Source: Flavobacteriales bacterium (GTDB lineage: Bacteria; Bacteroidota; Bacteroidia; Flavobacteriales_F; PHOS-HE28). From it: a stretch of 64,000 nt of DNA. Under the pieces are notes generated by a model. It saw nothing but the letters and a program-made list of their open reading frames with translations. It had not been told where the DNA came from and searched no databases. Made by a program: the position numbers and the translations under genes. This document shows positions 38,071-56,091 of the stretch, in pieces (within the stretch, counting starts at the first letter, position 1; every line of letters begins with the position of its first letter). The stretch lies in the NCBI GenBank assembly GCA_046329105.1, contig JAXLVH010000007.1, positions 128,515 through 192,514 on the forward strand, written 5' to 3'.

Positions 38071-38367
38071 ATGAACCTCTCCCTCCTCTTCGCCCGCCGC
38101 TACCTCCTGGCCAAACGGAGTACCAACGCGGTGAACATCATCACGGTGATCAGCATCACGGTGGTGGCGGTGGTCACGGCGGCCATGGCGGTGGTGCTCA
38201 TCACCCTCAACGGCATCAGCGCACTGGTGGACAAGTTGTACAGTCCCTTCGATCAGGATGTCACCATCACCTTGCGGGAAGGGAAAACATACCCGCGTGA
38301 TAGCCTGCCGCTGATCGGATCGCAAAGCCGTAACAATGGCGTTTGGAACGTTCAAGAAACTGGCTGA
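38071..38367 (+). pseudogene. N-terminal fragment (98 aa) of a LolC/LolE/FtsX-family ABC permease
   Basis: MNLSLLFARRYLLAKRSTNAVNIITVISITVVAVVTAAMAVVL matches the LolC/E N-terminus and first TM. The ORF stops after 98 codons and does not continue in any frame. Confidence 0.6.
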
Positions 38368-38444
38368 TCGCTTCCGTCGGATCGATCCGGCCGAGAGCGT
38401 ATCCCAGGTACGGTGGGGCCGGATCTTCCCCATGGCCTCAGTAT

Positions 38445-38605
38445 TATTGCAATAGACCTCCGTCCCAATTGCTCAGGGGAATGAAAAAGACTTGTCACGG
38501 TGAGCCTGCCGAACCGGTCCTTGCTTCGCCGTAGCGGCTACGCAAAGGCGCGGTCGATGGGCTCACCGTGACATTCAATAGGAATTACGACGGAGGTCGA
38601 ATGAA
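38445..38605. repeat. palindromic dispersed repeat (R1 family, copy A): TGTCACGGTGAGCC...GGCTCACCGTGACA nested inside outer inverted repeat GACCTCCGTC/GACGGAGGTC
   Basis: Perfect 14-bp inverted repeat. The internal segment GCGCCTTTGCGTAGCCGCTACGGCG is homologous to the tails of copies B and D. Confidence 0.7.
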
Positions 38606-38807
38606 GTAACCATATACCCATGGGCCATTTGTGCCAGAACGGTCGGGAATGGAACGATGCATAACTTTGATCATGCGCGAACAAGGGCCACCACATTGCG
38701 AATGATCCAGGACCCCCCCGGCTCCATCCCCCGATCCGGCAGGCCCGCTCCACGCCGACCACTACACACGACGTGATGCCATGCGGAACCAACGGCCCGG
38801 CCACCTG

Positions 38808-39467
38808 ATGTTCGTTCGATCGTTGTCCGGAGCTCTGGCCGCATTTGCGATGGTCCCTCCGCTCTTGTCCATCGCTCAGTCAAGCACGAGCGCATCATAC
38901 CACGATTGGACACTCCTGGAAAGTCGTGACGGGATCGTGTCCTATCGCGGTGGTACCAAGGTTGATGGGGCTGTTCCCACGAAAGTGGAATTGACGATCG
39001 TGGCGGAACCCGCGGATGTGGTGGCGGCGATCACCGATTTTGACGGGTACAAGGACTGGATACCGTATTGCACGTCCAGCGAGGTTTTGCGAACGGTGAA
39101 CGCTGACGAATGCTACGCGTACTATTTCATTTCACCGCCCATGGTGGCCGACCGGGATGTGGTGGTCCATAGCGTCACGATCAGGGTGATCAATGGATCC
39201 TACGAAGTCGTGATCGCCGATACGCAGGACATGTTGAAGGAGGGGCCGGAGGGTGTCATCCGCATGCCGCACTTCCTCAGCCATTACTGGATCTCGGTGG
39301 ATGGGTCCGGCGTTACGCACATCACCCACATCAACGAAACGACCCTGGGTGGGAGCATTCCCGAGTTCCTCACCAGTTGGTCCAGCCACGGGCAACCGCT
39401 CAGTACCATGCAGGCCTTGAAGGAGCGGATCCTGAAGCACAAGACCTCTGCGCTCCACCAACGCTGA
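38808..39467 (+). CDS. START/SRPBCC lipid-binding domain protein, secreted
   Basis: Signal peptide and a START-like fold (DWIPYC, alternating beta pattern). Confidence 0.55.
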   Translation: MFVRSLSGALAAFAMVPPLLSIAQSSTSASYHDWTLLESRDGIVSYRGGTKVDGAVPTKVELTIVAEPADVVAAITDFDGYKDWIPYCTSSEVLRTVNADECYAYYFISPPMVADRDVVVHSVTIRVINGSYEVVIADTQDMLKEGPEGVIRMPHFLSHYWISVDGSGVTHITHINETTLGGSIPEFLTSWSSHGQPLSTMQALKERILKHKTSALHQR

Positions 39468-39661
39468 CCGCCTGTTCGGGCAGCATGAGCGGCACGCACT
39501 GGTTGAGCCGTACCGGACAATAGCCTCGGGCGGTCACGGGTGAAAGCCTGAACGCCGCCGTGATCATGCCTGCCCGACCTGAGGAATACGGATCGCGGGC
39601 ATCGCCCCCGAACAACCCGAACCGGAAGCAGGGGACCGTACCAGGCGTTCACCCCGCCCGA

Positions 39662-40588
39662 TCATGACGCCAGGAAATCCAGGTTGCGGCGCAATCCCGC
39701 GTATTTGGTGCGTTTGACGGCGCTGCCTTCGAAGAGTTCATCAAAGAGCACCTCGGTCATGTCGTGCCATTCCGCGCTGGAGAGGTCCATCACCCGCTCC
39801 TTCGGTGCGAAGTCGGGCTCATTGTGCGCCGTGCTGAATCGATTCCACGGGCACACGTCCTGACAGATGTCGCAACCGAAGACGCGGTCTGCGAATCGCG
39901 CACGCAGATCCTGCGGCAGCGCGTCCTTCAGCTCGATCGTGAAATAGCTGATGCATTTGCTACCGTCAACCTGATATGGGGCGATGATCGCATCGGTGGG
40001 GCAGGCATCGATGCACCGGCGGCAGGTGCCGCAATGGTCGGTGGCGGGCGCATCGGTCTCCAACTCAAGATCGGTGATCAGTTCGCAGAGGAAAAAGAAG
40101 GAACCCGCACCCTGGCGGATCACGTTGGTATGCTTGCCCTGCCAGCCGATGCCCGCACGTTGGGCCCACGCTTTCTCCAGCACCGGGGCGCTGTCCACGA
40201 AGGCGCGCATGTCCACATCGCCGAAGTGCTCCACGATGAAGGCCATGAGGGGCTTGAGCCGCTTCTTCACCACCTTGTGGTAGTCGCGGCCGTAGGCGTA
40301 GGTGCTCAGTTTGGGTGCGGCGGGGTCCGTCTGCTTCACTGGCGTGTGGTAGTTGTACGCCAGGCTGATCACGCTCTTCGCGCCAGGAACCAGTTTTCGG
40401 GGATCCAAACGCATATCGAAGTGGTTGCCCATCCAGCCCATCTCCCCTTGGCGGCCTTCGCGCAGCCATCGCTCCAAGCGGGGCGCTTCCTCCTCCAGGA
40501 AAGCGGCCTTCGCCATACCGCACGCCATGAACCCGAGTCGATGGGCTTCGGCCTTGATCAGGTCGGCCTTCTCGCGGGGTGTGCGCAT
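39662..40588 (-). CDS. queG: epoxyqueuosine reductase
   Basis: QueG N-terminus plus 4Fe-4S ferredoxin motifs (CGTCRRCIDACPTDAI). Confidence 0.9.
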   Translation of the reverse strand: MRTPREKADLIKAEAHRLGFMACGMAKAAFLEEEAPRLERWLREGRQGEMGWMGNHFDMRLDPRKLVPGAKSVISLAYNYHTPVKQTDPAAPKLSTYAYGRDYHKVVKKRLKPLMAFIVEHFGDVDMRAFVDSAPVLEKAWAQRAGIGWQGKHTNVIRQGAGSFFFLCELITDLELETDAPATDHCGTCRRCIDACPTDAIIAPYQVDGSKCISYFTIELKDALPQDLRARFADRVFGCDICQDVCPWNRFSTAHNEPDFAPKERVMDLSSAEWHDMTEVLFDELFEGSAVKRTKYAGLRRNLDFLAS

Positions 40589-40718
40589 GCGGGCAAGGTA
40601 CAGGCACCGGAGGACCGTTCACAACCGGCCTTACCAGCGTGCCTTCTTGTTCCTGTCCGTTCGATGGCCGGAACAAGATCACTCGCTCGGGATCGGCCGA
40701 CTGAAGAAGGGGTTGGGA

Positions 40719-40877
40719 TCAGGGCTTGATGCCCACCAGCTTGCCGTCCTGGATCACCCACACCTTGGTGCCATGCATCTTGGCAATGCGACGGGCCTCC
40801 TTCGCGGCCCGTTTGAGGGCCTTCGTGACCGCGTCCACAAATTCGTCCGACTGCTTCTTTGCGGATGTTTTACTCAT
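40719..40877 (-). CDS. 52-aa hypothetical protein translationally coupled to the zeta-toxin-like gene
   Basis: MSKTSAKKQSDEFVDAVTKALKRAAKEARRIAKMHGTKVWVIQDGKLVGIKP. Its ATG overlaps the upstream gene's stop (ATGA). It is below the ORF-track size cutoff. Confidence 0.5.
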   Translation of the reverse strand: MSKTSAKKQSDEFVDAVTKALKRAAKEARRIAKMHGTKVWVIQDGKLVGIKP

Positions 40878-41398
40878 GGGTGTCGCTCAAGTAGTAAGGG
40901 AACAGGACCGGAGTTCTCATACACCGCCCAAACATCAGCAAGCGGGCGATAGAGCGCCGCGAAGTTAGGCCATCCGCGTTCGTAGCGTCTACGCACATCG
41001 GCATCCGGCACATGGTGCCCACCATGCTTCACCCGGTGGGCTACACGTCTGATCGCCAGTTCTGCGGACTCCAGCCGAAGGAAGACGATCTCGATGCGGT
41101 AACCATTGTCCTTCATGCGTCGAAGCAGATCCACGTAGGTACGGCCGCTCAGCGTGGATTCCAGCGCGAACGATTCACCTTTTCTGGTCAACCGCTCCAG
41201 TTCCGACAACAACAAGCGACCAGCCGCGCGAGCAGCGAGTTCAGGGTGCAACGGAGAGAGGCCCGAGGCGATCAGGTCCGCATTCACGAAGTGCAGAACA
41301 CCCTCTGCCTCAGTAAGGAACTGACGTGCGAAGGTGGTCTTCCCCGCCCCGTTCGGACCGGCAATGATGATGCACCGGGGTGAAGTGCGCTTCTTCAT
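40874..41398 (-). CDS. zeta-toxin-family P-loop kinase (AAA/UDP-GlcNAc kinase-like)
   Basis: Walker A IIIAGPNGAGKTT near the N-terminus and ~170 aa size typical of zeta toxin domain proteins. Confidence 0.7.
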   Translation of the reverse strand: MKKRTSPRCIIIAGPNGAGKTTFARQFLTEAEGVLHFVNADLIASGLSPLHPELAARAAGRLLLSELERLTRKGESFALESTLSGRTYVDLLRRMKDNGYRIEIVFLRLESAELAIRRVAHRVKHGGHHVPDADVRRRYERGWPNFAALYRPLADVWAVYENSGPVPLLLERHP

Positions 41399-41724
41399 CG
41401 GGCCGTCAACGTGGCCTGACCACCGCATGCCAAGCTCGCGAAGATCAACGTAACTTCGGCTTTCATGGGTTCCCTGTTCCCTGTTCCCTGTTCCCTGTTC
41501 CCTGTTCCGGTTCCAAGCAGCAGATCATCTACGCTCATTCGATAAAGACCTGCCAGCTTGATGGCCCGTTCCGCGCTCAGTTTCACATGCGCGCTTTCCA
41601 ACTCGCTATATGCGGACTGCCCGATGGCCAGCACCTCGGCCAGATCCTCCTGGCTCAGGCCATGTGCCGAACGCAACTCCAGCAAGCGAAGAGCGATGCG
41701 CTTCTGTTCGCGACGATGCTCCAT
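41395..41724 (-). CDS. XRE-family helix-turn-helix protein (putative antitoxin/regulator) with repeat-encoded C-terminal tail
   Basis: HTH LSQEDLAEVLAIGQSAYSELES. The C-terminus GTGNREQGTGNREQGTGNREP is encoded by the heptamer tract. The start is uncertain (Met at 41724 or 41763). Confidence 0.55.
   Translation of the reverse strand: MEHRREQKRIALRLLELRSAHGLSQEDLAEVLAIGQSAYSELESAHVKLSAERAIKLAGLYRMSVDDLLLGTGTGNREQGTGNREPMKAEVTLIFASLACGGQATLTAR
41470..41504. repeat. heptanucleotide tandem repeat (TTCCCTG)x5
   Basis: Five perfect 7-nt units, read directly. They lie inside the 3' coding tail of the HTH gene, ~70 nt upstream of the toxin start. Confidence 0.9.
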
Positions 41725-41832
41725 GAAGCACGAAAGTATACCAGCAACACGCAATATCGGCATTGCCAATGACGATCCGCCGCTTGTTGCTCGAACATTC
41801 GCTCTCACCCTCAAATGGACGAACTTCATGGC

Positions 41833-42309
41833 ATGAGAACGATGATCGGTTTCGCTTGCGCAGCACTGTTGCTGGCAGGTTGTCAGAAAGAAGAGCCTGC
41901 CTCGGACAAAACCAATGTTGTGGCGAACGAGAGTGGCGATAGGGCCATCAAGCTGCGCACGATGGTCTGCGGCGGATGTGACCAGGATGGACACGATTGC
42001 GATTGGTGCGAGTGCGGCGGAGTCCCTTCCAATTGCTTACCGGACGTCATTGTCACCCGGCTTCACAAGCCTGCGGTGGATGAGGTCATCACGGCCATCC
42101 GATCCGGGGATCAGTCCAGTATCAAAACCGCATTCTCGGCGAACGCTTCTGTGCTGGCCCACTACCTGATCGTATCGGATATCGATGCGGTGATCACTGG
42201 CGACGCCTTGGCAACTTCGGAACCCCGCAGCCATGGTGAGCGCTTCATAGTCATTAGCGACCTCCACGATGCCGTCATTTCGGCGTATCCACTTTATGAG
42301 GAGGAATAG
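41833..42309 (+). CDS. hypothetical Cys-rich lipoprotein
   Basis: Lipobox LLLAGCQ and a CGGCDQDGHDCDWCECGG segment. Confidence 0.5.
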   Translation: MRTMIGFACAALLLAGCQKEEPASDKTNVVANESGDRAIKLRTMVCGGCDQDGHDCDWCECGGVPSNCLPDVIVTRLHKPAVDEVITAIRSGDQSSIKTAFSANASVLAHYLIVSDIDAVITGDALATSEPRSHGERFIVISDLHDAVISAYPLYEEE

Positions 42310-42408
42310 ATGGCCGAAGATCCATGCCATCCCTTTTGGCGGGCTGTCCAGCATTGGTCGATATGCCGCAGCCCATGGAGCCAAGGCATAGTTCTTCCTT
42401 CGTGCTAT

Positions 42409-43605
42409 ATGGCTGCATTGGTCGCTGTGATGGTGGCTTTAGGGTCTTGCCGCAGCGCGCCCCCTTCAGAAATAAAACTTGGATGGGGCGATAGCCTTAC
42501 CTACAACACAGGGTTTGCGGTCACCGCTCATCTGAGCGGGCGATGTCCGTGCCCAGACCGTGCGGACAAGAGTGAATGCGTCTATTTCGCCGATGCGGTC
42601 ACTGAGAAGAAAATCGCAATTTTCTCCCTCACAGGATTGTTACTCCAAACCGTCCCACTCGGCGAGGTGCTGAACAACCTCCATCAGATTGATGGTATCA
42701 CTGTGCTGCACCCGGACACCATTGTCATCAACGGAAAGTACAATAACAGGGTCGCCATCATCGACCGGACGGGCCGTTGTTCGGTATTGGCTGACCTTAG
42801 CGAACACATGCGGCGACCTGATGGTTTGACCTACGAACTCTGGACCTCGAATTTCGGCCCATTCGTGCTCGAAAAGCACCTATGCTTCCATGTCTCGCTG
42901 GTCGCCAATTCGATCGGCGGATATTGTGGCCAAGATGCGCCGCGTGTGAATGAAACGTACAGGTATGAATGGCTGGACCGAAACGGCCCCCACTTCGCCT
43001 CCCTCTCATTGGACTCTATAACCGATGGACCACGACTAATATGGGGCCCAACCGAATCGGACAAAGACACCATCCAGAATATCGCGCTGGTGCATCGCCT
43101 CGGATCCTATGCATGCGTCAATGGGCTATGGTTCGCTTTCTCGATCAACAGCCCCGACATCCTCATTCTTGACCCGGTGCGGATGCGCGACGTACGGCGC
43201 ATCCCAGTGCGTTCAGACTTCACCTCCACCTGTCGCGAGCCGGTGATGCTGCCCAAAGGCAAGGTACTCAACCTGCAAGACTCGCTGAATGACAGGCTGT
43301 ACAACGGCGGCTTCATCGAAACCATCCATTTCGATCGACCCAGCCAGCGCTATCTTGTGATTTTGCGCCACCGCGTCATCAAGGAGATCATGGATGGGAA
43401 AGAGCACCGACGCGGGGCCTATACCTTGCAGCAATACGACCGCGACTTCAATTTTATCAATGAAACGCCCATCACCGACAACAAGCACAAATTGCCCTTC
43501 ATGCTCTGTCTCCCGCAAGGCACTTACGTCATCCGTTCCGAGAGCAAACGGGAGAAGATGCGCGGCGTACACATATATGATCGCATCCTGCTTGATGAAC
43601 AATAA
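42409..43605 (+). CDS. hypothetical lipoprotein
   Basis: Lipobox VALGSC at the chosen internal start. No family recognised. Confidence 0.45.
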   Translation: MAALVAVMVALGSCRSAPPSEIKLGWGDSLTYNTGFAVTAHLSGRCPCPDRADKSECVYFADAVTEKKIAIFSLTGLLLQTVPLGEVLNNLHQIDGITVLHPDTIVINGKYNNRVAIIDRTGRCSVLADLSEHMRRPDGLTYELWTSNFGPFVLEKHLCFHVSLVANSIGGYCGQDAPRVNETYRYEWLDRNGPHFASLSLDSITDGPRLIWGPTESDKDTIQNIALVHRLGSYACVNGLWFAFSINSPDILILDPVRMRDVRRIPVRSDFTSTCREPVMLPKGKVLNLQDSLNDRLYNGGFIETIHFDRPSQRYLVILRHRVIKEIMDGKEHRRGAYTLQQYDRDFNFINETPITDNKHKLPFMLCLPQGTYVIRSESKREKMRGVHIYDRILLDEQ

Positions 43606-44089
43606 GACCGTTCCAGCATTCGTACTGCTTTCGGTGGTCGCGGGCTGCCAACACGTGGGCGCGGGCAAGGACAGTGCTACCGAGCAGCTGCGCGGCCTGG
43701 TAGGCCAGTACCGGAACGATGTGCCCATGTCGGGACTGAAATCGATCCTGGTCGTCACTGAAGAAGGATGCCCCGGGTGCAACAAGTCCCTGGCCCGGCT
43801 GGTGGAAGACTACCTGGCCGATACATCAACTCTGGTATGGGTATCCGCCGTGGGGGGCATGGTGGACATCAGCCCCTTCAAAGCCGAGCCGGAACGCGTG
43901 GTTTGGGACTATGGCGATAGTCTGCGGTCCCTCGGGATCATCAAAGGCTCCGGTGCCATCTTTTTGGACTCGGGCAAGATCGATACGGTCATCCAGCTTG
44001 ATGCCCGCAACCTGGGGACCGCGTTGGCGTTGGTTTCCGACCGCCTGAGCACGCCGGCCAACGCTCCGGCGGACAACCCCTCCAGATAG
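43595..44089 (+). CDS. hypothetical lipoprotein with thioredoxin-like CxxC (CPGC)
   Basis: Lipobox VVAGCQ and a CPGC motif. Confidence 0.5.
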   Translation: MNNKTVPAFVLLSVVAGCQHVGAGKDSATEQLRGLVGQYRNDVPMSGLKSILVVTEEGCPGCNKSLARLVEDYLADTSTLVWVSAVGGMVDISPFKAEPERVVWDYGDSLRSLGIIKGSGAIFLDSGKIDTVIQLDARNLGTALALVSDRLSTPANAPADNPSR

Positions 44090-44119
44090 CGTACCCTGCT
44101 GCGCTAAGTTGCGCCCGGC

Positions 44120-44584
44120 TCATTGTTTCCTTCGTTTCAACTCATGCACATCCAGCAGATCCTTCGGACGTGCGCTGCGCACCTTGCTCTCGATCAGGTC
44201 GTCCCGGCCGATCACCCGGTAGCGTGCCAATGGTACCCCGTCCGTTTCGGCGAGTACGCACCGCGACCACGCCTCTTCGAAGGTGCATCCGGGGTTGAAG
44301 CGCGTGATCAATTCGATCTCCTGCTCCGGCGAGATCTTGATCGAAATGTTCTGCTCAGCGGCCAACACCTTCGTCGGGAGCGCGTCGACCTCGTAGCCTA
44401 TGGCCTTCAGCACCGTCAGGAGCCTGTTGAAGTTCTCTGGTGAAGATTCGATCCACAGGTCAATATCGGCTGAATGACGTTTGTAGCCATGGTGATTCAC
44501 CGCCGCGCCTCCGACCATGATGATGCGCAGGCCCTCCCGCTGGGCCAATGAAAGGAACACCTTGACCTCAGCCTCGAACTCCAT
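44120..44584 (-). CDS. nucleotidyltransferase-like protein (putative)
   Basis: GG..N..G..R...DIDLWI is reminiscent of the minimal NTase fold (GS/GG...D.D). Weak call. Confidence 0.35.
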   Translation of the reverse strand: MEFEAEVKVFLSLAQREGLRIIMVGGAAVNHHGYKRHSADIDLWIESSPENFNRLLTVLKAIGYEVDALPTKVLAAEQNISIKISPEQEIELITRFNPGCTFEEAWSRCVLAETDGVPLARYRVIGRDDLIESKVRSARPKDLLDVHELKRRKQ

Positions 44585-44771
44585 CCGCCCGCTTCCAGAT
44601 GATGAAGTTGCCCTTCGCCTCTCCGCGCTCTTCCCGCGTTGGGGGGTTGCGGGTGATCTCGCGCAGATACAGCGCCAAGCGCTCCCACGGTGTCAGCGCC
44701 ATGAACTCCCGCTCGCGCCGGGCGTTGCTCTCCTCCTTCGTCTCAAAACGGATACGGGGATCGGTGCGCAT
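44568..44771 (-). CDS. small hypothetical protein overlapping the start of the NTase-like gene
   Basis: 67-aa ORF with a 17-nt overlap with the downstream gene. No family recognised. Confidence 0.3.
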   Translation of the reverse strand: MRTDPRIRFETKEESNARREREFMALTPWERLALYLREITRNPPTREERGEAKGNFIIWKRADGVRG

Positions 44772-44783
44772 CGTTGGGCGCCG

Positions 44784-46727: not shown

Positions 46728-46870
46728 GCGTTGGGGGCTGGAAAAGAGCAACAAAGGTAGAAGGAGGGCGGCTTGCTGTCCCGGTCTTCAACGTGATCCT
46801 GGTCCGTCCATTGTGGAATGGATCAAACCCGGCATGATCTTCGTACTCTAATGGGCATCAACCGAACGCC

Positions 46871-47908
46871 ATGAAACGCTGGACCCTCTTCCCGCTCGCC
46901 ATCGCCATAGGCTCGTCTCTTCTGGCACAGGACACGGCACGCGACAGCACCGGCCTGCCCGGCGATCAATTCAACTTGGAAGGCGCGCTCGACCTCTTCA
47001 AGCGGAACCTTGAGATGGAGGGCTTCGAGAAAGCGCTGAACACCGACAGCAACCGGGTGAACAACCTGGACCTGGACGGCAATGGCCGGATCGACTACGT
47101 GCGGGTGGAGACCCAGCGCGAAGGCAACGCGGCCTATGTGGTGATGAAGGTGGCGGTGAGCGCCACCGAGAGCCAGGACGTGGCGGTGATCGCCATTGAA
47201 AAGACCGGCGAGGAGAGTGCCATCCTCCAGATTATCGGCGATGAGGCCCTGTACGGACCGGATGCGATCGTGGAGCCATACGCCGAGGAACAGGGCATGG
47301 CCCCTTCCAAAGGTCCTTCGGCTCCTGAATTGCATGGCTTCTTCGTCACGGTGAACTGCTGGTTCTGGGAGCCGGTGCCCTGGTTCTTCAGCGACCGCTG
47401 GTACGCCTATCACTCACCTTGGTATTGGGGCTACTATCCGCCGTGGTGGAACACATGGGCCCCGTATGACTGGTTCATCTGGCACGGCTGGTGGGGCTAC
47501 CATCACCACTGGTACCGGCCCTGGGGTAGTTGTCGTGTGGGCTCCGCACAAGCGTTGTACCTGCCCCGTCGGGCGCAGAGTGCAATCGTTCGGGAGCGGT
47601 ACCGGGATGTGCGTGCGCGCTATGAGAAGAACCCCGCCCGCCTGCAGAAGGGACCGGCTGACGGCTTGCAGAAAGAGCGGCATGGGAAAGATGCGGTACG
47701 AGAGCGGCCGGTGACCCCGGATCGCCCTCAACGGGCGAAGGCTCCGGAAGCCCGCCCCAGCAAGGAACCGGGCAAGAACGGAGTGGCCCGGCCCGGCAAA
47801 GCACCACGCCAGCCGGAGGCCCGGCCCGCGCGCAGGCCAGCTAAAGCGCGACCCGCACCCGCGCCGCGGCCGACCCCACGTCCTTCGCCACGGCCACGCG
47901 GCAGATAG
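46871..47908 (+). CDS. secreted protein with Trp/Tyr-rich core and Pro/Arg/Ala-rich C-terminal tail
   Basis: Signal peptide, then a WFWEPVPWFF...WYWGYYPPWWNTWAPYDWFIWHGWWGYHHHWYRPWG segment, then PRPxPRP repeats. Confidence 0.5.
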   Translation: MKRWTLFPLAIAIGSSLLAQDTARDSTGLPGDQFNLEGALDLFKRNLEMEGFEKALNTDSNRVNNLDLDGNGRIDYVRVETQREGNAAYVVMKVAVSATESQDVAVIAIEKTGEESAILQIIGDEALYGPDAIVEPYAEEQGMAPSKGPSAPELHGFFVTVNCWFWEPVPWFFSDRWYAYHSPWYWGYYPPWWNTWAPYDWFIWHGWWGYHHHWYRPWGSCRVGSAQALYLPRRAQSAIVRERYRDVRARYEKNPARLQKGPADGLQKERHGKDAVRERPVTPDRPQRAKAPEARPSKEPGKNGVARPGKAPRQPEARPARRPAKARPAPAPRPTPRPSPRPRGR

Positions 47909-48008
47909 GTCCTCCACATACGGGGATAACAGGAGGCTCCCGGTGGTCGTGATCACCGGGGGCCTTCCGCTTTCCGTACTACCCCTTCTTCAGGAAAGCG
48001 TCCCATCC
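47897..48008. repeat. ~112-bp direct repeat, copy 1 (duplicate of thiL 3' end plus terminator hairpin)
   Basis: About 92% identical to 48420..48532. Re-encodes GWDAFLKKG* and the CCCGGTGGTCGTGATCACCGGG hairpin. Confidence 0.8.
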
Positions 48009-48184
48009 TTCCTGCATTCAGTGATCGCCGCGAGTTCCAACCCGATCGTACGCTGCAAGCCTTGATGACCGGGCACATCCGAATTTGATCGGGTGACTCG
48101 CCCAATCCCCCATTCCCGAGCAAAATAGTGTTCAGACCGGCCTGAACGTGCTGAGGATCGCGTATTCAGAAACGATACCGGCTT

Positions 48185-48330
48185 GTTGCAGCGCTTCGGC
48201 AGGCTCAGCGTGACAGCTCATCGGGAGTGTTCAAGAAAAGTGCTCTTGGACACTCATGTCCCCACTGTCACGCTGAGCCCGCCGACTGCGCCTATGCGTA
48301 GCCGCTCCGGCGAAGTGAGGAGCGCCATAC
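48185..48330. repeat. palindromic dispersed repeat (R1 family, copy B): GGCTCAGCGTGACAG-N48-CTGTCACGCTGAGCC + tail GCCGACTGCGCCTATGCGTAGCCGCTCCGGCGAAGTGAGGAGCGCC
   Basis: Perfect 15-bp inverted repeat. Roughly 85% identical to copy D. Confidence 0.8.
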
Positions 48331-48419
48331 TCCCGTTCCCGGCGCTCGTTCCGGATCTTGAACACAAACACTTGCCCTCACCGATCATCTCGGGTGTCCC
48401 GATCGCTGAAAACAGGGCA

Positions 48420-48532
48420 GCGCGGCAGATAGGTCGTCCACATACTGGAATATCAGGAGGCTCCCGGTGGTCGTGATCACCGGGGGCCTTCCGCTTTCCG
48501 TACTACCCCTTTTTCAGGAATGCGTCCCAGCC
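48420..48532. repeat. ~112-bp direct repeat, copy 2 (authentic thiL 3' end and terminator)
   Basis: See 47897..48008. Confidence 0.8.
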
Positions 48533-49546
48533 CTGCGCGCGCAGCTCGTGCTGGCCGCCCTGCTTGTCGATGAGCGCGTACCCGCTGTTCCTGTCGGTCA
48601 TGTACCCGATCACGGTGAGGCTCGGGTTGCCCTTCACCTTGTCGTAGTCGGCCTGGGCGATGGTGAAAAGCAGTTCGTAGTCCTCGCCGCCGTTGAGCGC
48701 GCAGGTCGTGGGGTCCAGGTTGAAATCGCGGGCGGTCTGATAGGTCCCGGGGTCGATCGGTATTTTTTCGTCGTGGATGCGCACGCCAAGGCCCGAACTG
48801 CGAGCCAGGTGTATGGCCTCGCTGGCCAGTCCATCGCTCACGTCGATCATGGCGGTGGGCCGCACATGCAACTGCTTCAGCAGCGCAATGATGTCCCGCC
48901 GGGCTTCGGGCTTCAACTGGCGCTCGAGGATGTAGTCGTGTCCTTCGAGGTCCGGTTGCGCGCTGGTCTCCCGGAACACGGCCTTCTCGCGCTCCAGCAC
49001 CTGGAGGCCCATGTAGGCGCCGCCCAGATCGCCGCTTACCACCAGCAGATCGTGCTCCTTCGCACCGCTGCGGTACGTGATGTCCTCCTTCCGCGCCGCG
49101 CCGATGGCGGTGATACCGATGACCAGCCCGCTGGTGCTGCTGCACGTGTCGCCGCCCACGAGGTCCACGCCATAGTTCTTGCAGGCCAGCAGCATGCCCT
49201 CGTACAACTCGTCGATGGCCTCTACGGGAAAGCGGTTGCTGAGGGCCAGCGCCACCGTCACCTGTCGGGGTTCGGCGTTCATGGCGTACACATCGCTCAG
49301 GTTCACCACGATGGCCTTGTAGCCCAGGTGCTTCAGCGGCACGTAGCCCAGGTCGAAATGGACACCTTCCACCAGCATATCGGTGGTGACCACTTGGTGC
49401 AGGCCCTGCGGATCCAGAACGGCGGCATCATCGCCGATGCCCTTCACCGAGGAGGGATTCGCGAGACGAACGCGGGAGGCGATGCGCTCGATGAGGCCGA
49501 ATTCGCCGAGGGCGGAGAGTTCGGTGCGGGTGGTTGACTCGGACAT
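48503..49546 (-). CDS. thiL: thiamine-monophosphate kinase
   Basis: AIR-synthase-related fold with the GDDAAVL motif. Confidence 0.85.
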   Translation of the reverse strand: MSESTTRTELSALGEFGLIERIASRVRLANPSSVKGIGDDAAVLDPQGLHQVVTTDMLVEGVHFDLGYVPLKHLGYKAIVVNLSDVYAMNAEPRQVTVALALSNRFPVEAIDELYEGMLLACKNYGVDLVGGDTCSSTSGLVIGITAIGAARKEDITYRSGAKEHDLLVVSGDLGGAYMGLQVLEREKAVFRETSAQPDLEGHDYILERQLKPEARRDIIALLKQLHVRPTAMIDVSDGLASEAIHLARSSGLGVRIHDEKIPIDPGTYQTARDFNLDPTTCALNGGEDYELLFTIAQADYDKVKGNPSLTVIGYMTDRNSGYALIDKQGGQHELRAQGWDAFLKKG

Positions 49547-49631
49547 GGTGCGCGAAGCTATCCCTTCAACATCGCGTAGGGCGAGCACGCACGCTGGAAG
49601 CAGGGCCCAACTCCGTACCTTTGAGGCCCAT

Positions 49632-49646
49632 TTAGAACAGTTCTAA
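49632..49646. promoter_or_regulatory. perfect palindrome TTAGAAC-A-GTTCTAA 46 bp upstream of sufA
   Basis: Read directly. Its position is appropriate for an operator of the sufAB transcription unit. Confidence 0.4.
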
Positions 49647-49691
49647 AGGCGAAAAAGACCCCTCCTCCGCCAAGGCTACGGCGGGCAACGA

Positions 49692-50018
49692 ATGATCAAG
49701 GTGAGCGAGACCGCCAAAAGCGAGGTCACCAAATTGCTGGGCATGGAAGGACGTGGGCCTCAGCACTTCGTACGCGTGGGCGTGAAGGGCGGCGGCTGTT
49801 CCGGCCTGATGTACGACCTGACCTTCGACGACCAGATGAAGGACGGCGACAAGGTCTTTGAGGACAACGGCGTGAAGGTGGTGGTGGACAAGAAGAGCCT
49901 GCTCTACCTGCTGGGCACCACGCTCGACTTCAGCGGTGGTCTCAATGGCAAGGGCTTCCAGTTCGTGAACCCCAACGCCAGCCGGACCTGCGGGTGTGGG
50001 GAGAGTTTTTCGATATGA
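49692..50018 (+). CDS. sufA: HesB/IscA-family Fe-S cluster insertion protein
   Basis: 108 aa with the C-terminal CGCGESF motif. Confidence 0.9.
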   Translation: MIKVSETAKSEVTKLLGMEGRGPQHFVRVGVKGGGCSGLMYDLTFDDQMKDGDKVFEDNGVKVVVDKKSLLYLLGTTLDFSGGLNGKGFQFVNPNASRTCGCGESFSI

Positions 50019-50032
50019 ATCGATACAGTATT

Positions 50033-50139
50033 GAGAATGGTGAAAATGGAGAGAAAGTGATATGCCCTGGACGATGATCAACACCTGTAACCTGTAGTCC
50101 CACTTTCTCACCGCCTTCACCACCCTCACCGTTCTCACC
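50033..50139. repeat. cargo-less copy of the GGTGA-rich / CACC-rich complementary bracket motifs
   Basis: Left arm GAGAATGGTGAAAATGGAGAGAAAGTGA and right arm CCACTTTCTCACCGCCTTCACCACCCTCACCGTTCTCACC are separated by 38 bp. Same architecture as the brackets around 2537..3007. Confidence 0.6.
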
Positions 50140-50148
50140 CGCATTCCT

Positions 50149-51597
50149 ATGGCACAGGACACCGACGATATCCTCCGTGAGGTCACCGAAAAGGAGTACG
50201 CCTACGGTTTTGTCACGAACATCGAGAGCGAGAAGGCCGAGAAGGGCCTGAACGAGGACATCGTACGCTTCATCAGCAAGAAGAAGGAAGAGCCGGAGTG
50301 GATGCTGGAGTGGCGCCTCGAGGCCTTCCGGCTCTGGCAGAAAATGGAAGAGCCCACCTGGGCGCATGTGAACTATCCGAAGATCGATTACCAGGACGCC
50401 TATTACTACAGCGCGCCCAAAAAGAAACCGCAACTCAACAGCTTGGACGAGGCCGACCCCGAGCTGGTGAAGACCTTCGAGAAGCTGGGCATCTCCTTGG
50501 AGGAGCAGAAGCGCCTTGCCGGTGTGGCCGTGGATGTGGTGTTCGACAGCGTGAGTGTGAAGACCACTTTCCAGAAGACATTGAAGGAAAAAGGGATCAT
50601 CTTCTGCTCGTTCAGCGAGGCGGTACGGGAACATCCTGATCTGGTAAAGAAGTACATCGGCAGCGTGGTGCCACGCACGGACAACTACTTCGCCGCGCTC
50701 AACAGCGCCGTGTTCAGCGATGGCAGCTTCTGCTACATCCCGCCAGGAGTACGCTGTCCCATGGAGTTGAGCACCTACTTCCGCATCAACGAGGCCATGA
50801 CCGGCCAGTTCGAGCGCACCCTGCTGATCGCCGACGAGGGCGCTTACGTGAGCTACCTGGAAGGATGCACCGCCCCCATCCGCGATGAGCACCAGTTGCA
50901 CGCCGCCGTGGTGGAACTGGTCGCGCTGAAAGACGCGGAGATCAAGTACAGCACCGTCCAGAACTGGTACCCCGGCGACAAGGACGGCAAGGGCGGCATC
51001 TACAATTTCGTCACCAAGCGTGGCCTTTGCCTCGGCGATCGCAGCAAGATCAGCTGGACGCAGGTTGAGACCGGCAGCGCGATCACTTGGAAGTACCCGA
51101 GTTGCGTGCTCAAAGGCGACCACAGTGCGGGCGAGTTCTATAGCGTGGCCGTGACCAACAACCGCCAGCAGGCCGACACGGGCACCAAGATGACCCACAT
51201 CGGCAAGGGCACCAAGAGCACCATCGTGAGCAAGGGCATCAGCGCGGGCTTTTCCAACAACAGCTACCGTGGACTGGTGAAGATCGGTCGCGGCGCGAAA
51301 GGCGCACGGAACTTCAGCCAGTGCGATTCCCTCCTGCTCGGCGACCGCTGCGGCGCACACACCTTCCCGTACATCGAGAGCGAGAACCCCAACGCCATGG
51401 TGGAGCACGAGGCCACCACCAGCAAGATCGGTGAGGACCAGATCTTCTACCTCAACCAGCGCGGCATCGAGACCGAAAAAGCGGTATCACTCATCGTGAA
51501 CGGCTACTGCAAGGAGGTGCTGAACCAACTGCCGATGGAGTTCGCCGTGGAGGCGCAGAAGTTGTTGGCGGTGAGCTTGGAGGGGAGCGTGGGGTGA
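50149..51597 (+). CDS. sufB: Fe-S cluster assembly protein SufB
   Basis: 482 aa, conserved throughout as SufB. Confidence 0.95.
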
Positions 51598-51610
51598 TCG
51601 GCCAACGTTC

Positions 51611-52054
51611 GTGACCGTGTTCCGGCCGACGGCTGTCGCCATTTCATCCTATGCGGCCATCGGCCCCCAATGGTCATCTGCCTGGAACTGCTCGAGGACC
51701 GAGCGCCGCAACTTTGTCAAGGCCTTGCACTTGGCTGTCTCCGCCGAATTGGCACTGGGAGGCTCTATGTCGAATACAGTGGGTAGTCGAACTTGAGCTT
51801 ACCGGTGAGGAAGTATATCACGTTGATGATGTTTTGGATATTCAGGTAGCCCCTTGCCCTTGCTCTGGCGAGTTGGACCTTTGAATTGATCCCTTCGCGG
51901 ATCCCGTTGGAGAAGTGGTACTTGGTGTGGTTGGTGATGCCAGCCCAATACTGGGCAACGGTCTTCGCGAACTTGACAAAAGGGCCAATGGCTGCATCGG
52001 CGGCCAAGTCACACCAGAAGGCCAGGAAGCTCCTGTTTTAACTAAATGGGTCAC
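51611..52054 (-). mobile_element. ISL3-family insertion-sequence remnant
   Basis: It contains the transposase C-terminal fragment listed next. No intact transposase or clear terminal inverted repeats were found. Confidence 0.55.
51765..52007 (-). pseudogene. ISL3-family transposase, C-terminal ~80-aa fragment
   Basis: ...ITNHTKYHFSNGIREGINSKVQLARARARGYLNIQNIINVIYF matches the conserved ISL3 transposase C-terminus (NxxxEGxNxKIKxxKRxAxGYRN). The N-terminus is absent. Confidence 0.6.
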
Positions 52055-52177
52055 CCAAAGTCGATACGGAAGGTTTTGAGCAGTAGTTGTTGGTCTTGGG
52101 TCTTGGCCAGGATCCTGGTCTGGGAGCGGCCTGAAGCCTGGTCATGGATGGTGATGCCATAGACCATTGCGAGGCAT

Positions 52178-52420
52178 TCAAGGCTCCGCGTCAGCAATGG
52201 CGTGGCCTCATTGAAATCTGCCGAAGCGCTTCGACGGGCTCAGCGTGACATTTCAGGTGCCGCGTCGGCAAGAACGCGACCTCATTGAAACGGTGTGTGG
52301 CGATGTTCCCACGGAACATGGGCTCCACGTCAGCAATCGTATGGCGTCATTGAAACCCGTCGAAGCGGTGAGCTTGCCGAACCGTCGACGGGCTCAGCGT
52401 GACATTTCGGGCTCCACGTC
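52178..52420. repeat. ~139-bp tandem repeat (about 2.1 copies) ending in GGCTCAGCGTGACATTTC
   Basis: Units begin near 52181, 52320 and 52410 (GGGCTCCACGTCAGCAAT...CATTGAAA...CGACGGGCTCAGCGTGACATTTC). They share the R1 core GGCTCAGCGTGACA. Confidence 0.7.
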
Positions 52421-52472
52421 TTTTGTCCATGAAGGCCTTTCCGTTGATCATGCGCCCGATCGGTGGACGCCT

Positions 52473-54200
52473 CTACCGCAGCACGCGCATCACCGGATAG
52501 AGCCGATGCCCCGGCTCGTAGTGCGGCGATCGTTGGTACACCCAGTACAATTGTTGCCACGCATCCGCCGCGAAGGCGGGATCGGTGCTGCGGCGATCGT
52601 TCAACTCCTTTCGCAGTTCCGGGTCCTTGGCCAGCAGTTCTGCGGCGATGCTCTCGAAGACATAATCACTGAACCACTCCTTCTGCTGCAGCACACTGTC
52701 GAAGAAGCCCCAGGCGAAGAACCCGTCCGAGGCCCGTGGCTCGAGCATTTCCATGGCCAGGCGGTCCGTGCGGTGGCCCATGGGCACCAACACATCGCCC
52801 GGGTGGAGTACGACCTCGATGGTGTCCGTGGTGGTGCTGACCCCTTGATGCAGGTAGTGCCCTTCGTACGGTTCGCGCACCGTGCCGAAGTCGGTGATGC
52901 GCTGGGCCTCCACGCGCTCGGTCCGCTCCTCGTTCACGGTGTCCAGTGGAACACCGGCGAGGCGCAACCGCTGGATCACCTCGGGCCAGGCCTGCGGCAC
53001 CAGGTAAGCCACGGGCTTGGTGAGGGTGATCGTCGGGATCGCATGGTCCCGCCATGGCACCAGGGTGTCCATGCGCTGCGACCGGTCGTAGTGCAATTGC
53101 GGCAGGCCCGATACGGCGCTGGGTCGTTCGGAGGCCGTATACCCTTTCCACGGGAGCAGTTCTGTACGCGTGGTATCAATTTGCCAGTTGAGGCCGAAGG
53201 CTTCTGCTGCGGCCGTGTTGCTTCCGGCCTGCATGCGGCTTGTGCGCAGCTCTTCACCGTGCTGATCCATCACGGCGAGCGTGGCCAGCATGAGCTGAAA
53301 GGTGGCGTTCACACGATCGGCGTACGGCTTCAACATGTGCGATTCGGACAGCAGCCCGATGCGCCCTTGGAGCGCGGAGAATCCCGTGCTGTAGCGTGGT
53401 CCGTCCACGAAGCCCTCCAGCCCGTGCTCCGGGGGTCCGTCCACCGTTTCGAAGTACGGGCACATCCCGATGTCCTTGCGCTCCATCCAAGTGTACAGGC
53501 CGGGGAGCAAGTGGTCGTTCGCGAAGGACCTCAGCGTGGGATCCAGCTTGTCGCGATGCGTCAGCAGCAACTCCATCAGGTACCGGTGGTCGGCCCCATC
53601 GCTCACATGCGTTTCCATATAGATGTCCGGATCCCAGCGGGTGAGTGCGGCTACCAGCGATCGGGTATTGCGCGAGTCCATTTTCATGAAGTCACGATTG
53701 AGGTCCAGGTTGCGTGCATTGCCTCGGAAGCCATACGCCTCGGGGCCGTTCTGGTTCACCCGCAGGGCGCCGTTGCGTTGCAGCGCACCTCTCACGTTGT
53801 ACATGGGTACGATGCACACGGCGGTGTGGACGGTGAGCCCCATCAGTTGGTCGCTCTCCAGCAGCGCCCGTGCCAGCAAGAGGCTCGCATCCACGCCGTC
53901 GGGTTCGCCGGGATGGATGCCGTTGGTGATCCACAGGATGTTCTTCCCGCTTGCACGGATGCTGTCGGGGGAGAAGCCGCTGCCATCGCTCACCACGAAG
54001 AGGTGGATGGGGAGTCCGTTGTCGTCGTACCCCATCACCTGCAATTGGGCGCCGGTGTGCAGGCTGTCGAGCTCTGCGTAGCGCGCGATGGCCTCTTGCC
54101 AGGTGGGTGTGGTGTTTCCAGTGAAGGTCCATTGAGCGGCACAATGCGACCAGAGGAAACCAGTGACGGCACACAGGAGCCATCGTGTGCAACAGGACAT
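52473..54200 (-). CDS. M14-family zinc carboxypeptidase, secreted
   Basis: Signal peptide and the HPGE zinc-binding motif (NGIHPGEPDG), with an M14-like fold. Confidence 0.8.
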   Translation of the reverse strand: MSCCTRWLLCAVTGFLWSHCAAQWTFTGNTTPTWQEAIARYAELDSLHTGAQLQVMGYDDNGLPIHLFVVSDGSGFSPDSIRASGKNILWITNGIHPGEPDGVDASLLLARALLESDQLMGLTVHTAVCIVPMYNVRGALQRNGALRVNQNGPEAYGFRGNARNLDLNRDFMKMDSRNTRSLVAALTRWDPDIYMETHVSDGADHRYLMELLLTHRDKLDPTLRSFANDHLLPGLYTWMERKDIGMCPYFETVDGPPEHGLEGFVDGPRYSTGFSALQGRIGLLSESHMLKPYADRVNATFQLMLATLAVMDQHGEELRTSRMQAGSNTAAAEAFGLNWQIDTTRTELLPWKGYTASERPSAVSGLPQLHYDRSQRMDTLVPWRDHAIPTITLTKPVAYLVPQAWPEVIQRLRLAGVPLDTVNEERTERVEAQRITDFGTVREPYEGHYLHQGVSTTTDTIEVVLHPGDVLVPMGHRTDRLAMEMLEPRASDGFFAWGFFDSVLQQKEWFSDYVFESIAAELLAKDPELRKELNDRRSTDPAFAADAWQQLYWVYQRSPHYEPGHRLYPVMRVLR

Positions 54201-54467
54201 CGGGTCAGGCATATGTGAATTTCGGTATGATGATCCGAAGCACCTCCATCGCTCGGCCCGGAGGAAGGGGGGCCTCGATGCGGAACTGCGACAGCGTCAC
54301 CAATGTCGGTCCCCGGGTGTTCCGCGTTCCCATCACGGCAAAGGAACAGCGGGACAACCTCAGGACATCATCGGACCGGCTCCTCAATGATCGTTAACGG
54401 ATCGAGGTCCGTTGAACCTTGTGGCCCGATGCTTGTCACAACACCACCGAACCCAACGTGAACGAAC

Positions 54468-54875
54468 ATGAAGAAGCTATTGATGCTGATGGTGCTGGCC
54501 GCTATGACCGCCACCGTCCAAGCCCAGGACACCGGCAAGAGGACCACTCAGGAAAGGGCTCATGCGCGCTCGGAACGCATGGCCAAGGAACTCGGCCTGA
54601 GTCCGGAGCAACAAGCGAAAGTGGAAGCCATCGACCTGAAGTACGCCGAGCGGTCGCAAGCCTTGCGTGCCGAACGCGAAGCCAAGGAGGATGGGGCACG
54701 GAAGGATGGCCAAGGCCGCGCGATCCGCGATGCGCGCGAGGTGGAAATGAAAGGGGTGCTCACTCCGGAGCAATTCTCGCGGTGGAAGGCGAAGCGCGAC
54801 GAACTGAAAGCGCGCCGTACCGCGCAACACAAAGCGTTGCGCTCAACGAAGAAGGAGGCGATCCCGCAGCAGTAG
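54468..54875 (+). CDS. hypothetical secreted helical protein (Spy/LTXXQ-like)
   Basis: Signal peptide, Lys/Glu/Arg-rich helical repeats and an LSPEQ motif. Confidence 0.45.
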   Translation: MKKLLMLMVLAAMTATVQAQDTGKRTTQERAHARSERMAKELGLSPEQQAKVEAIDLKYAERSQALRAEREAKEDGARKDGQGRAIRDAREVEMKGVLTPEQFSRWKAKRDELKARRTAQHKALRSTKKEAIPQQ

Positions 54876-54953
54876 GAAACGGGATCTTGAAGAGTGTTCC
54901 GTTACCGCACTTCCCAAGAGCCATGGTGAGCACGCTTGCCCTGACGAGGGCTT

Positions 54954-55085
54954 GGCCGGCGGACTTCACGGTTCGGTGGGCTCGCCGCGACACGCCTTTG
55001 TGATCATCCAGGGCGATCGGCATGGAGAAGCATCCAATGAACGCCCCGCGGGATATCGGCGGGGCGTTCGCGTTCACCTGCTTCC
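54954..55085. repeat. ~131-bp direct repeat, copy 1 (duplicate of arsC 3'-flank/terminator)
   Basis: About 88% identical to 55423..55553. Contains a strong hairpin GAACGCCCCGC-gggatatcg-GCGGGGCGTTC. Confidence 0.8.
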
Positions 55086-55274
55086 TGTTTCCAGTGATCG
55101 GGATACCCGTGGCGATCCGCGAGGGCAAAAATTCGTGGTCAAGCGGGCAGGTCAGGTCCGAATACCCGACCCAAGAACGGAAGTGCCCGTCCATCAGCGC
55201 TTGTAGCGCGGGATAGCGCCAGGAGCCGGGATGAGTACTGGGAACAGGAGTATGACGCTTCGGCCCTTCCGGTG

Positions 55275-55410
55275 TCAGGGCAGGCTCGCTCAGCGTGACA
55301 GTTCATAGGGAGTAATAGAACAGTGCTCGTGGACACCCATGACCCCACTGTCACGCTGAGCCGGCCGACTGCGCCTATGCGTAGCCGCTCCGGCGATGCG
55401 AGGAGCGCTA
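55275..55410. repeat. palindromic dispersed repeat (R1 family, copy D)
   Basis: GGCTCGCTCAGCGTGACAG-N45-CTGTCACGCTGAGCC + GGCCGACTGCGCCTATGCGTAGCCGCTCCGGCGATGCGAGGAGCGC. Confidence 0.8.
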
Positions 55411-55422
55411 CAACAAGCCGGT

Positions 55423-55553
55423 ATCGGCGGACTTCACGGTTCGAGGGGCTCGTCGGGACACGCCCTTGTGATCATCCTGGGCGATCGGCAAGGAGGTGCA
55501 TCAAATGAATGCCCCGTGGAATATCGGCGGGGCGTTCGCGCTCACCTGCTTCA
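55423..55553. repeat. ~131-bp direct repeat, copy 2 (abuts the arsC stop)
   Basis: See 54954..55085. Confidence 0.8.
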
Positions 55554-55913
55554 CTTCAACTTCTTCCCGGCGGCGATCATGCCCTCCACGGCCGCCTTCG
55601 TGTTGCCGATGTGGATCGCATCACCCACCACCATCACCGGGCGCTTCAGGAAGGTATACTCCTGCAGGATGTATATGCGGTAGTCCTTCTCGGTGAGCCG
55701 TTTTTCGTGCAAGCCCAGCGGCCGGTATTTCATGGACCGACGGCTGAACAACGCTTCGTAGCTGCCGGCCAACTCCTTCATCCCGTCCAGTTCTTCCGCG
55801 GTGATCGGAGCACTCTTGATCTCGCGCAGGGTGAATTTCCCAAGGTTCGGTATGGAGCCGAGGATGCGCTGGCACGTGCTGCAGGTGGCCAGGTGGTAGA
55901 TGGTCGCGGGCAT
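55551..55913 (-). CDS. ArsC/Spx-family thiol reductase (YffB-like)
   Basis: N-terminal IYHLATCSTCQ with the catalytic Cys in the ArsC-family context. 120 aa. Confidence 0.75.
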   Translation of the reverse strand: MPATIYHLATCSTCQRILGSIPNLGKFTLREIKSAPITAEELDGMKELAGSYEALFSRRSMKYRPLGLHEKRLTEKDYRIYILQEYTFLKRPVMVVGDAIHIGNTKAAVEGMIAAGKKLK

Positions 55914-56091
55914 GCTGGAAGAAGCCTTTTCCGTGCGGTGAACGCGGCGAAGATGGGGCATGATACGCGGTCGGATCATTTTTGACCCCGCCACCCATCC
56001 CTGCAAGTTCCCGTTCATCACATTGGAAACATTTTTCCTTACATAATGTTTCCTGTGTTCCGATGGCATCTATTTTTGCGCTCCCTGAACG

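Follow-up and report, generated by a model that had tools for sequence, protein, structure and literature searches.

Dispersed hairpin repeats are in themselves common and ordinary. To our knowledge, a dedicated enzyme has been linked to such repeats in essentially a single case, that of the repetitive extragenic palindromes (REPs) and REP doublets forming hairpins (REPINs) with the REP-associated tyrosine transposases (RAYTs). Here we describe a palindromic repeat found at four loci, A, B, C and D, in a 64-kb stretch of DNA from a Flavobacteriales bacterium (contig JAXLVH010000007.1, positions 128,515 to 192,514; these 64,000 nucleotides are referred to as the window, and coordinates are counted from its first letter). 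The unit of the repeat is a short sequence with its own stem, the arm, which is combined with other modules, among them a conserved tail, and which in other genomes brackets genes for small GIY-YIG nucleases. We regard the four loci as non-autonomous members of a mosaic palindromic repeat family resembling REPs, REPINs and bacterial interspersed mosaic elements (BIMEs), with the GIY-YIG nuclease as partner enzyme, a reading that we hold with about even confidence.

The arms share with REPs the form of short, extragenic, imperfect hairpins (the size criterion is 20-40 bp; the arms here are 25 nucleotides (nt) long with a 5-bp stem) accompanied by a conserved flanking motif, the arrangement in inverted doublets and the clustering at gene 3' ends. 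In both systems a single-copy, stably placed enzyme gene is bracketed in inverted orientation, and the stem sequence varies by lineage while the architecture is retained. In REPs, one palindrome end bears a conserved tetranucleotide, GTAG or CGTC (PMC3733652), whereas the arms carry TGACA and an 11-nt loop, with neither tetranucleotide at the arm foot; GTAG occurs inside the tail module. The bracketed gene also differs, encoding here a GIY-YIG protein (UPF0213/Slx1-like) of a fold unrelated to the Y1/HUH transposases, and the present system, known from sequence alone, is found mainly in Bacteroidota and REP-RAYT in Proteobacteria. The BIMEs of enterobacteria likewise form mosaics in which palindromic units alternate in orientation and are connected by short motifs, and they too are placed between convergent genes, but they have no sequence relationship to the family described here, whose modules (tail, S, M1 and M2) are different and longer and build composites of up to ~400 bp. 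The subterminal hairpins of IS200/IS605 elements also combine a small hairpin with an adjacent conserved short motif, suggesting recognition of single-stranded DNA; no TnpA or TnpB is present here, and the analogy is one of logic only.

The repeat family and its unit

The core GGCTCA[G/C]CGTGACA occurs eight times in the window, exclusively at loci A, B, C and D, against an expectation of 0.07 ± 0.26 in dinucleotide-preserving shuffles, none of 100 of which reached eight. Matches to GGCTCASCGTGACA with at most one mismatch lie at 38493/38560 (A), 48202/48266 (B), 52237/52391 (C) and 55287/55349 (D). The palindromic family that an earlier, sequence-only reading had proposed at exactly these four loci is therefore real, and its label of REP/MITE-like was right in kind, this being a modular, dispersed palindromic family of the kind of REPs, BIMEs and miniature transposable elements with inverted repeats (MITEs). 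The inverted pairing that was claimed for all copies holds for A, B and D, where the repeat is perfect over 14, 15 and 14 bp, respectively (only 14 bp in D because its left arm begins with CGCTCA); C has no clean inverted pair. Hairpin and tail of B and D are 89.4% identical over 123 nt, and A and B 88% identical over 50 nt. The modularity that had been noticed is borne out, the tail being enclosed by the two arms in A and lying beyond them in B and D. All three fold as single strands far better than shuffled sequences (z = -7.4 for A, -7.0 for B and -4.2 for D). The flanks of the four copies are unrelated to each other, and all copies are situated at gene 3' ends or junctions.

The unit itself had to be redefined: it is not the 14-15-bp inverted repeat as such, but a single 25-nt arm with its own covarying stem, [A/G]NNN-T-TCGRCRRGCTC-A-N'N'N'-TGACA. 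It comprises a 5-bp stem, variable and self-complementary, a conserved 11-nt loop (TCGRCRRGCTC) and the conserved TGACA. Over 142 distinct arms, positions 2-4 and the variable trinucleotide ahead of TGACA are usually reverse complements of each other, with at least seven complementary stem types (CGC/GCG 59, CCC/GGG 8, TCC/GGA 6, GTC/GAC 5, TGG/CCA 3, CGG/CCG 3 and TGC/GCA 3); chance matches in coding sequence have no such complementarity.

Statistics were computed on 104 indel-free arms, collected with an anchor pattern and filtered by hand, with 38 indel variants and the chance coding matches dropped. In this set 93.1% of the stem cells pair, compared with 80.0 ± 0.8 in shuffles (0 of 500), double-sided stem changes number 49 against 7.7 in shuffles, and compensatory changes affect three of the five stem pairs. 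When partner columns were slid as a control, pairing fell to 14-55%. The loop stretch T-C-G-R-C-R-R, which the anchor pattern does not cover, is 97-100% conserved at four of its positions. Arms are arranged as inverted doublets (F-loop-R, where F and R denote the two orientations; B and D), back to back (R-F; A and C) or, elsewhere, in tandem arrays. Every arm is still self-complementary in doublets of mixed stem type (L062, L026, L041, L077), so the small hairpin within each arm, and not only the long palindrome, is under constraint. Such covariation points to selection on a folded single strand and does not by itself separate DNA from RNA; strand asymmetry (G-T versus A-C), considered as a means of distinguishing the two, was absent once the anchored pair had been excluded. 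Comparison of B and D with uninterrupted arms (L003, L004, L010) identifies the tail as an insertion into an arm, a small 36-nt hairpin placed between ...GCCGA and GCGC.

GIY-YIG nuclease genes bracketed by arms

Arms in fixed orientation bracket small UPF0213/Slx1-like GIY-YIG genes at nine of the ten loci examined, which represent unrelated intergenic sites. Four of these loci were reached via the arms (L004, L024, L041, L048). The other six were fetched via protein homology and provide an independent test, in which five turned out to have canonical arms on either side of the gene (L061, L062, L063, L065, labelled Candidatus Binatia, and L077). Upstream of the gene, the closest arm has R orientation in 8/9 loci; downstream of it, the closest arm has F orientation in 9/9. 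With the covariance model built for the arm, matches in these loci are confined to the immediate surroundings of the gene, and control loci from related genomes (L018, L020, L085, L087) have none. Gene and arms are also joined at the sequence level: the TGA stop codon of the GIY-YIG gene is often supplied by the downstream arm, and an arm-encoded peptide (STGSA-stop, HAEPxEA) stands at the end or start of the open reading frame (ORF) in 21 of 120 homologs. This bracketing across phyla is the reason for proposing the nuclease as the enzyme acting on arms.

The locus closest to the window, L004, carries its exact arm-plus-tail signature and derives from the same metagenome assembly as the window-identical contigs L006 and L016. 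A tandem arm array (1045-1630, ~12 arm units with a 43-nt period) lies directly upstream of a 129-amino-acid (aa) GIY-YIG ORF, which is followed by a hairpin and tail of the B/D type. The array was also considered as a CRISPR array, and this was rejected, as the 'spacers' are themselves repeated and the array is a plain tandem repeat. The ORF matches Pfam GIY-YIG (PF01541) at 5.6e-18, with UPF0213 structures 1YWL/1ZG2 closest in the PDB (E ~1e-10). PF01541 scores were 5.6e-18 and 2.6e-19; apart from these, only the related T5orf172 domain was hit, weakly and with overlap, and TIGR01453 was matched weakly and in part (18.6 bits versus a cutoff of 56). The protein is a minimal catalytic domain with a core of ~95 aa and no DNA-binding (NUMOD-type) extension. 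A 2006 survey of GIY-YIG proteins described the bacterial Slx1-like group as minimal-domain and mainly vertically inherited, with a suggested role in DNA/RNA metabolism (PMC1564403).

The window itself has no GIY-YIG gene, and its copies are for this reason considered non-autonomous. In the metagenome-assembled genome (MAG) SMAG_U3660, a GIY-YIG locus (L062) coexists with dispersed arm arrays of the same two stem types (L026). Movement of identical GIY-YIG genes between loci was considered and rejected, since the proteins P0228 and P0142 each occupy a single locus in all samples; such a single stable locus resembles RAYTs rather than insertion sequences. A search for a RAYT/IS200-like transposase had been suggested from the sequence-only reading. 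No Y1 transposase was found among the scanned ORFs of the window and no link to RAYT or IS200 was seen, and the gene that adjoins the arms belongs to the GIY-YIG family. The partner enzyme is most likely the UPF0213/Slx1-like nuclease rather than a RAYT.

Near one homolog in a 63%-GC genome (L068, 1270-1990), a different repeat was observed, with direct copies of CCTCATGCTGAGGAGCGAGCA...GTCTCGAAGCACGAGG and CTTCGAGA...CTCAGGATGAGG units; this suggests that the partnership of gene and repeat extends to other repeat sequence classes.

The same association could arise if the arms were host structural or regulatory hairpins (a terminator, insulator, mRNA-stabilising element, protein-binding site or RNA motif) spread by recombination, with the GIY-YIG genes as selfish, homing-type passengers that land on multicopy arms without propagating them. 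The GIY-YIG family is a classic source of homing endonucleases (PMC1564403), the copies are positioned at 3' ends of genes and in the space between convergent genes, the composite elements described below contain a terminator-like hairpin, and the covariation would suit a folded DNA or RNA alike. Known homing enzymes such as I-TevI and the Seg proteins share the catalytic fold and the break-and-copy mobility that we would postulate here, but they have long DNA-binding domains and target a single gene allele, whereas here a minimal domain sits between multicopy hairpins. Neither of the traits by which GIY-YIG homing is recognised is found here, namely a C-terminal, sequence-specific DNA-binding domain and a position within an intron, within an intein or next to one target gene. 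The fixed orientation of gene and arms and the stop codon, often within the arm, have the look of a unit that co-evolves and not of random landing; relative to neighbouring genes, arms are found in either orientation, and there is no Rfam match. We consider passengers on host hairpins unlikely, if a serious alternative.

Occurrence in and outside the window

With the covariance model, nine arms were detected in the window (E <= 0.1), all intergenic and all at the four loci within a 17-kb stretch (38.4-55.4 kb), and none in the other 47 kb; the 'hundreds genome-wide' of the sequence-only reading are therefore not inferable from the window. Confinement to this stretch might suggest that the four copies arose merely by segmental duplication inside it, with no family behind them. 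The mutually unrelated flanks of A, B, C and D already speak against this. The signature of arm plus tail was moreover found on 17 metagenome contigs, of which ~10 represent unrelated loci absent from the window, and the generalised arm is present in many Bacteroidota MAGs. The core is thus not restricted to the window loci, the outcome that would have left only local duplication, and we attach next to no probability to that explanation.

Contigs with the same loci from related strains correspond to B (L001, L006), A (L005) and D (L012, L017). No GTDB species representative contains the arm-plus-tail signature. A shorter arm pattern gave 38 genome loci, ~25 of them in Bacteroidota (GC 33-67%) and some in other phyla; the remaining matches look like chance matches within coding sequence. 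Plasmid, phage and IMG/VR searches yielded no match to the elements, and no tRNA or tmRNA integration sites were found. Rfam gave no match in the whole window and only sub-threshold chance matches for the elements and four related loci, and a group II intron or other known RNA was discarded as a candidate on this ground. A protein identical (100%) to the window ThiL occurs in a 'Flavobacteriales bacterium' MAG, which together with a GC content of ~61% assigns the window to a high-GC Bacteroidota lineage.

Composite elements and flanking duplications at B and D

Copies B and D belong to a larger composite type, Y (roughly 340-400 bp), also present in L002, L009, L014 and L016 and built from the modules S, M1, arm pair, tail and M2. 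The S motif (CCTGTTTYCAGYGATCGGGA) forms the element end, inverted at both ends of B and present at the left end only in D. Copy B lies between a convergent 345-aa ORF (plus strand) and thiL (48503-49588, minus strand, AIRS domains), with an arm-loop-arm hairpin at 48202-48279 followed by the ~45-nt tail. Its features are as follows.

47889-48012: X_a(B), first spacer copy, with the 345-aa ORF's stop, a GC hairpin (CCCGGTG...CACCGGG) and a remnant of the final 8 thiL codons
48009-48416: copy B element Y, ~400 bp, with inverted S motifs (CCTGnnTTCAGnGATCG), left at ~48009-48030 and right at 48397-48416
48130-48147, minus strand: terminator-like hairpin and T-run of module M2 in Y(B), in thiL direction, conserved in L016 and L052
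48191-48215, plus strand: left arm GCGCTTCGGCAGGCTCAGCGTGACA, covariance model 44.9 bits, E = 1.6e-9
48266-48325, minus strand: right arm, split by the 36-nt tail hairpin at 48286-48321, covariance model 26 bits
48413-48536: X_b(B), second spacer copy, adjoining and overlapping the real thiL 3' end

Copy D is placed between a Spy/CpxP-like gene (plus strand) and an arsC-family gene (55551-56069, minus strand), again as an arm-loop-arm hairpin (55287-55362) followed by the ~45-nt tail.

54957-55084: X_a(D), first spacer copy, downstream of the arsC-family gene, with the hairpin GAACGCCCCGCGG...CGGCGGGGCGTTC and a degenerate arm at its start
55084-55424: copy D element Y, ~340 bp, with S motif at 55084-55103, M1, arms and tail at 55369-55404, ending truncated within M2
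55288-55302 and 55349-55368: copy D arm pair, part of Y(D)
55425-55552: X_b(D), second spacer copy, ending at the arsC-family stop codon

Every copy had been said to sit at a site of local rearrangement. This stands for A, at a truncated LolC/E gene, and for C, at an IS remnant; at B and D the supposed duplications of thiL and arsC turned out to be direct duplications of 120-128 bp of downstream spacer that bracket the insert and include at most 8-11 codons of the genes. X_a and X_b are 92-94% identical at B, where the duplicated segment takes in 9-15 nt of the 345-aa ORF and ~33 nt of thiL, and 89% identical at D. The relic thiL end (WDAFLKKG*), as read from the sequence, has only synonymous differences from the real one. 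As an outcome, both convergent genes retain an intact 3' end and a hairpin. Apart from the corresponding locus in related strains, the duplicated segments are found nowhere else in the window or among the fetched loci. Insertion at B would predate the split from the 96%-identical MAG contig L052, which already carries it; it is also present in the NCBI contig L089.

No standard transposase explains a duplication of ~125 bp, which might stem from widely staggered nicks, from Campbell-type integration of a circle with captured spacer, or from template switching. A diversity-generating retroelement was rejected as the source, the mismatches being of all types and not adenine-specific; no reverse transcriptase is present among neighbouring ORFs. 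Nor do the X hairpins qualify as canonical intrinsic terminators, having no T-run and not being called by a simple scan. A degenerate arm (CGGTTCGGTGGGCTCGCCGCGACA) was observed to open both spacer copies of D (54966-54994 and 55434-55462), the first being a marginal match to the covariance model (E = 0.44); either an older arm was already at the site or part of the 'target' is itself element-derived.

L016 carries the left part of D with a longer right part. It is 98.9% identical to window positions 54313-55426 and then diverges inside the element (L016 1091-1290), where it leads into a fuller element, followed by the 3' end of another gene (491 aa). Recombination between dispersed copies is the best reading, the alternative being a chimeric low-coverage assembly. 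An internal direct repeat of ~90 nt (851-940 and 1194-1281) was also noted in this contig. As to the neighbour of copy D, a 486-bp segment containing the arsC-family gene is 99.4% identical between two relatives (L085 2425-2910 and L087 1822-2307) in entirely different neighbourhoods, so that this small gene moves, or its borders recombine, independently of the arms.

The anatomy of Y invites a conventional explanation, in which Y elements are deletion derivatives of an insertion sequence with a DDE transposase, or the arms are REPs moved by a RAYT/IS200-type Y1 enzyme, and the GIY-YIG genes are bystanders. MITEs such as Correia, ERIC and Nezha are 150-400-bp, non-coding, intergenic elements that end in inverted repeats, readily form strong hairpins and may carry terminators. 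Terminal inverted repeats are indeed seen here, as S at both ends of Y(B) (14/19 matching) and as an outer inverted repeat in A (GACCTCCGTC) and in other A-type elements, with S ending other copies too (the left end only in D); an ISL3 transposase remnant lies near copy C, and REP doublets flanking an enzyme gene are the known RAYT pattern (PMC3116915, PMC3733652). Set against this, none of A, B, C and D shows a short fixed target duplication, B and D having the 120-128-bp duplications instead, and no insertion sequence with S ends was seen in any of the 90 fetched loci. The conserved motif is TGACA, not GTAG or CGTC, no Y1 transposase is present among the scanned ORFs (those of the window), and it is a GIY-YIG gene that arms bracket, in fixed orientation, at nine of ten loci. 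A conventional MITE or REP origin is in our opinion improbable.

Copies A and C

Copy A follows a truncated, N-terminal LolC/E fragment. Elements of its type are also found at loci L007, L011 and L013. Its fold as DNA has -42.1 kcal/mol, and the arm-tail-arm unit spans 38493-38573.

38452-38600: copy A, ~150-nt palindromic element in which an outer inverted repeat (GACCTCCGTC...GACGGAGGTC) encloses two arms with the tail hairpin between them
38493-38517, minus strand: complete arm, stem CGG/CCG (covariance-model match 38491-38519, 38.9 bits, E = 5e-8)
38518-38549: tail module between the arms, a small imperfect hairpin around GCGTAGCCGCTACGGC, 85-88% identical to the B/D tails, inverted
38550-38573, plus strand: second arm, loop one base shorter (covariance-model match 38548-38575, E = 0.011)

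The LolC/E fragment comes directly after a low-GC island (35375-38433; GC 0.47 at 36-38 kb compared with ~0.62 around). The island encodes a DUF4143/AAA_14 ATPase (35375-36553) and a 346-aa ORF (36688-37728) with a weak HEPN RiboL-PSP match, and looks like an acquired insert, possibly defence-related.

Copy C is flanked by the ISL3 transposase remnant, ~220 bp away, and by an M14 peptidase gene (3' end).

51765-52007, minus strand: ISL3-family transposase remnant, with a match only to the final ~60 residues in the DDE_Tnp_ISL3 profile
52169-52420: copy C, a degenerate array of 3 x ~70-nt tandem units (tandem 52169-52355)
52226-52250 and 52382-52404, plus strand: two full arms in direct orientation
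52366-52384, minus strand: truncated opposite arm, detected by the covariance model

Repeats unrelated to the family were also observed in the window. A 31-nt inverted repeat, TCACCACAGAGGCACAGAGGACACAGAGAAA, 90% complementary, occupies 59371-59401 and 59514-59544 with its arms 112 nt apart. Periodic 9-nt repeats of the CTCACCACC type, maybe coding repeats, are located at 3008-3051, 50107-50132 and 60554-60589.

Proposed mechanism

Under the partnership reading, a GIY-YIG nuclease encoded elsewhere in this genome would recognise the hairpin of the arm in DNA that is extruded or single-stranded and make a nick close to TGACA. Repair that copies another locus with arms could then spread and reshuffle the tail, S, M1 and M2 modules, and as a side effect the copies would become hot spots of recombination and rearrangement. 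Insertion may leave a ~125-bp duplication of the spacer between convergent genes, with both flanking genes keeping their 3' ends.

Several observations weigh against this reading. The association of gene and arms, from which cutting or moving of arms by the nuclease is inferred, also fits passengers on host hairpins; one homolog locus (L068) is flanked by a different repeat, and the genes for P0228 and P0142, each at one stable locus across many samples, were not seen to move. Collection of the 104 arms by anchor and by hand makes the loop conservation partly built-in, and the isolated arm (-3.2 kcal/mol) folds no better than shuffles, so that stable folding is not predicted. Insertion with duplication is deduced from anatomy, as no empty site was found for B or D: relatives with a ThiL 85-90% identical share no DNA past the thiL stop, and the nearest other ArsC-family proteins, at most 78% identical, have different contexts without arms. 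The missing right S end of D and the missing second spacer copy of L016 imply a history more complex than one clean insertion.

Significance

No description of the core, of the arm-encoded peptides or of a link between GIY-YIG genes and repeats was found in the searchable literature, which leaves out most subscription journals, so that an earlier description is possible. New here are the 25-nt covarying arm unit, the bracketing of GIY-YIG genes by arms and the B/D composites with 120-128-bp spacer duplications. Taken to its full extent, the system would be a second, independent partnership of the REP-RAYT type, in which a minimal Slx1/UPF0213 nuclease maintains and spreads genome-wide covarying mini-hairpins across Bacteroidota and other phyla, with insertions whose ~125-bp target duplications preserve the 3' ends of convergent genes; in this wide form we put it forward tentatively and with more doubt than belief.

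If the flank duplications are made at insertion, their mechanism would be unlike that of known transposases. If the association proves reproducible across phyla, it would also explain a class of assembly-breaking repeats and spurious ORFs of the 'VTLSLSKG / FDKLRVT' type in Bacteroidota MAGs. Should the association hold, it would be a pointer to function for the large orphan family of minimal GIY-YIG (UPF0213/YhbQ/Slx1-like) nucleases; and a true second partnership would give this widespread family its first function and provide a second natural example of a long-lived alliance between a repeat and an enzyme.

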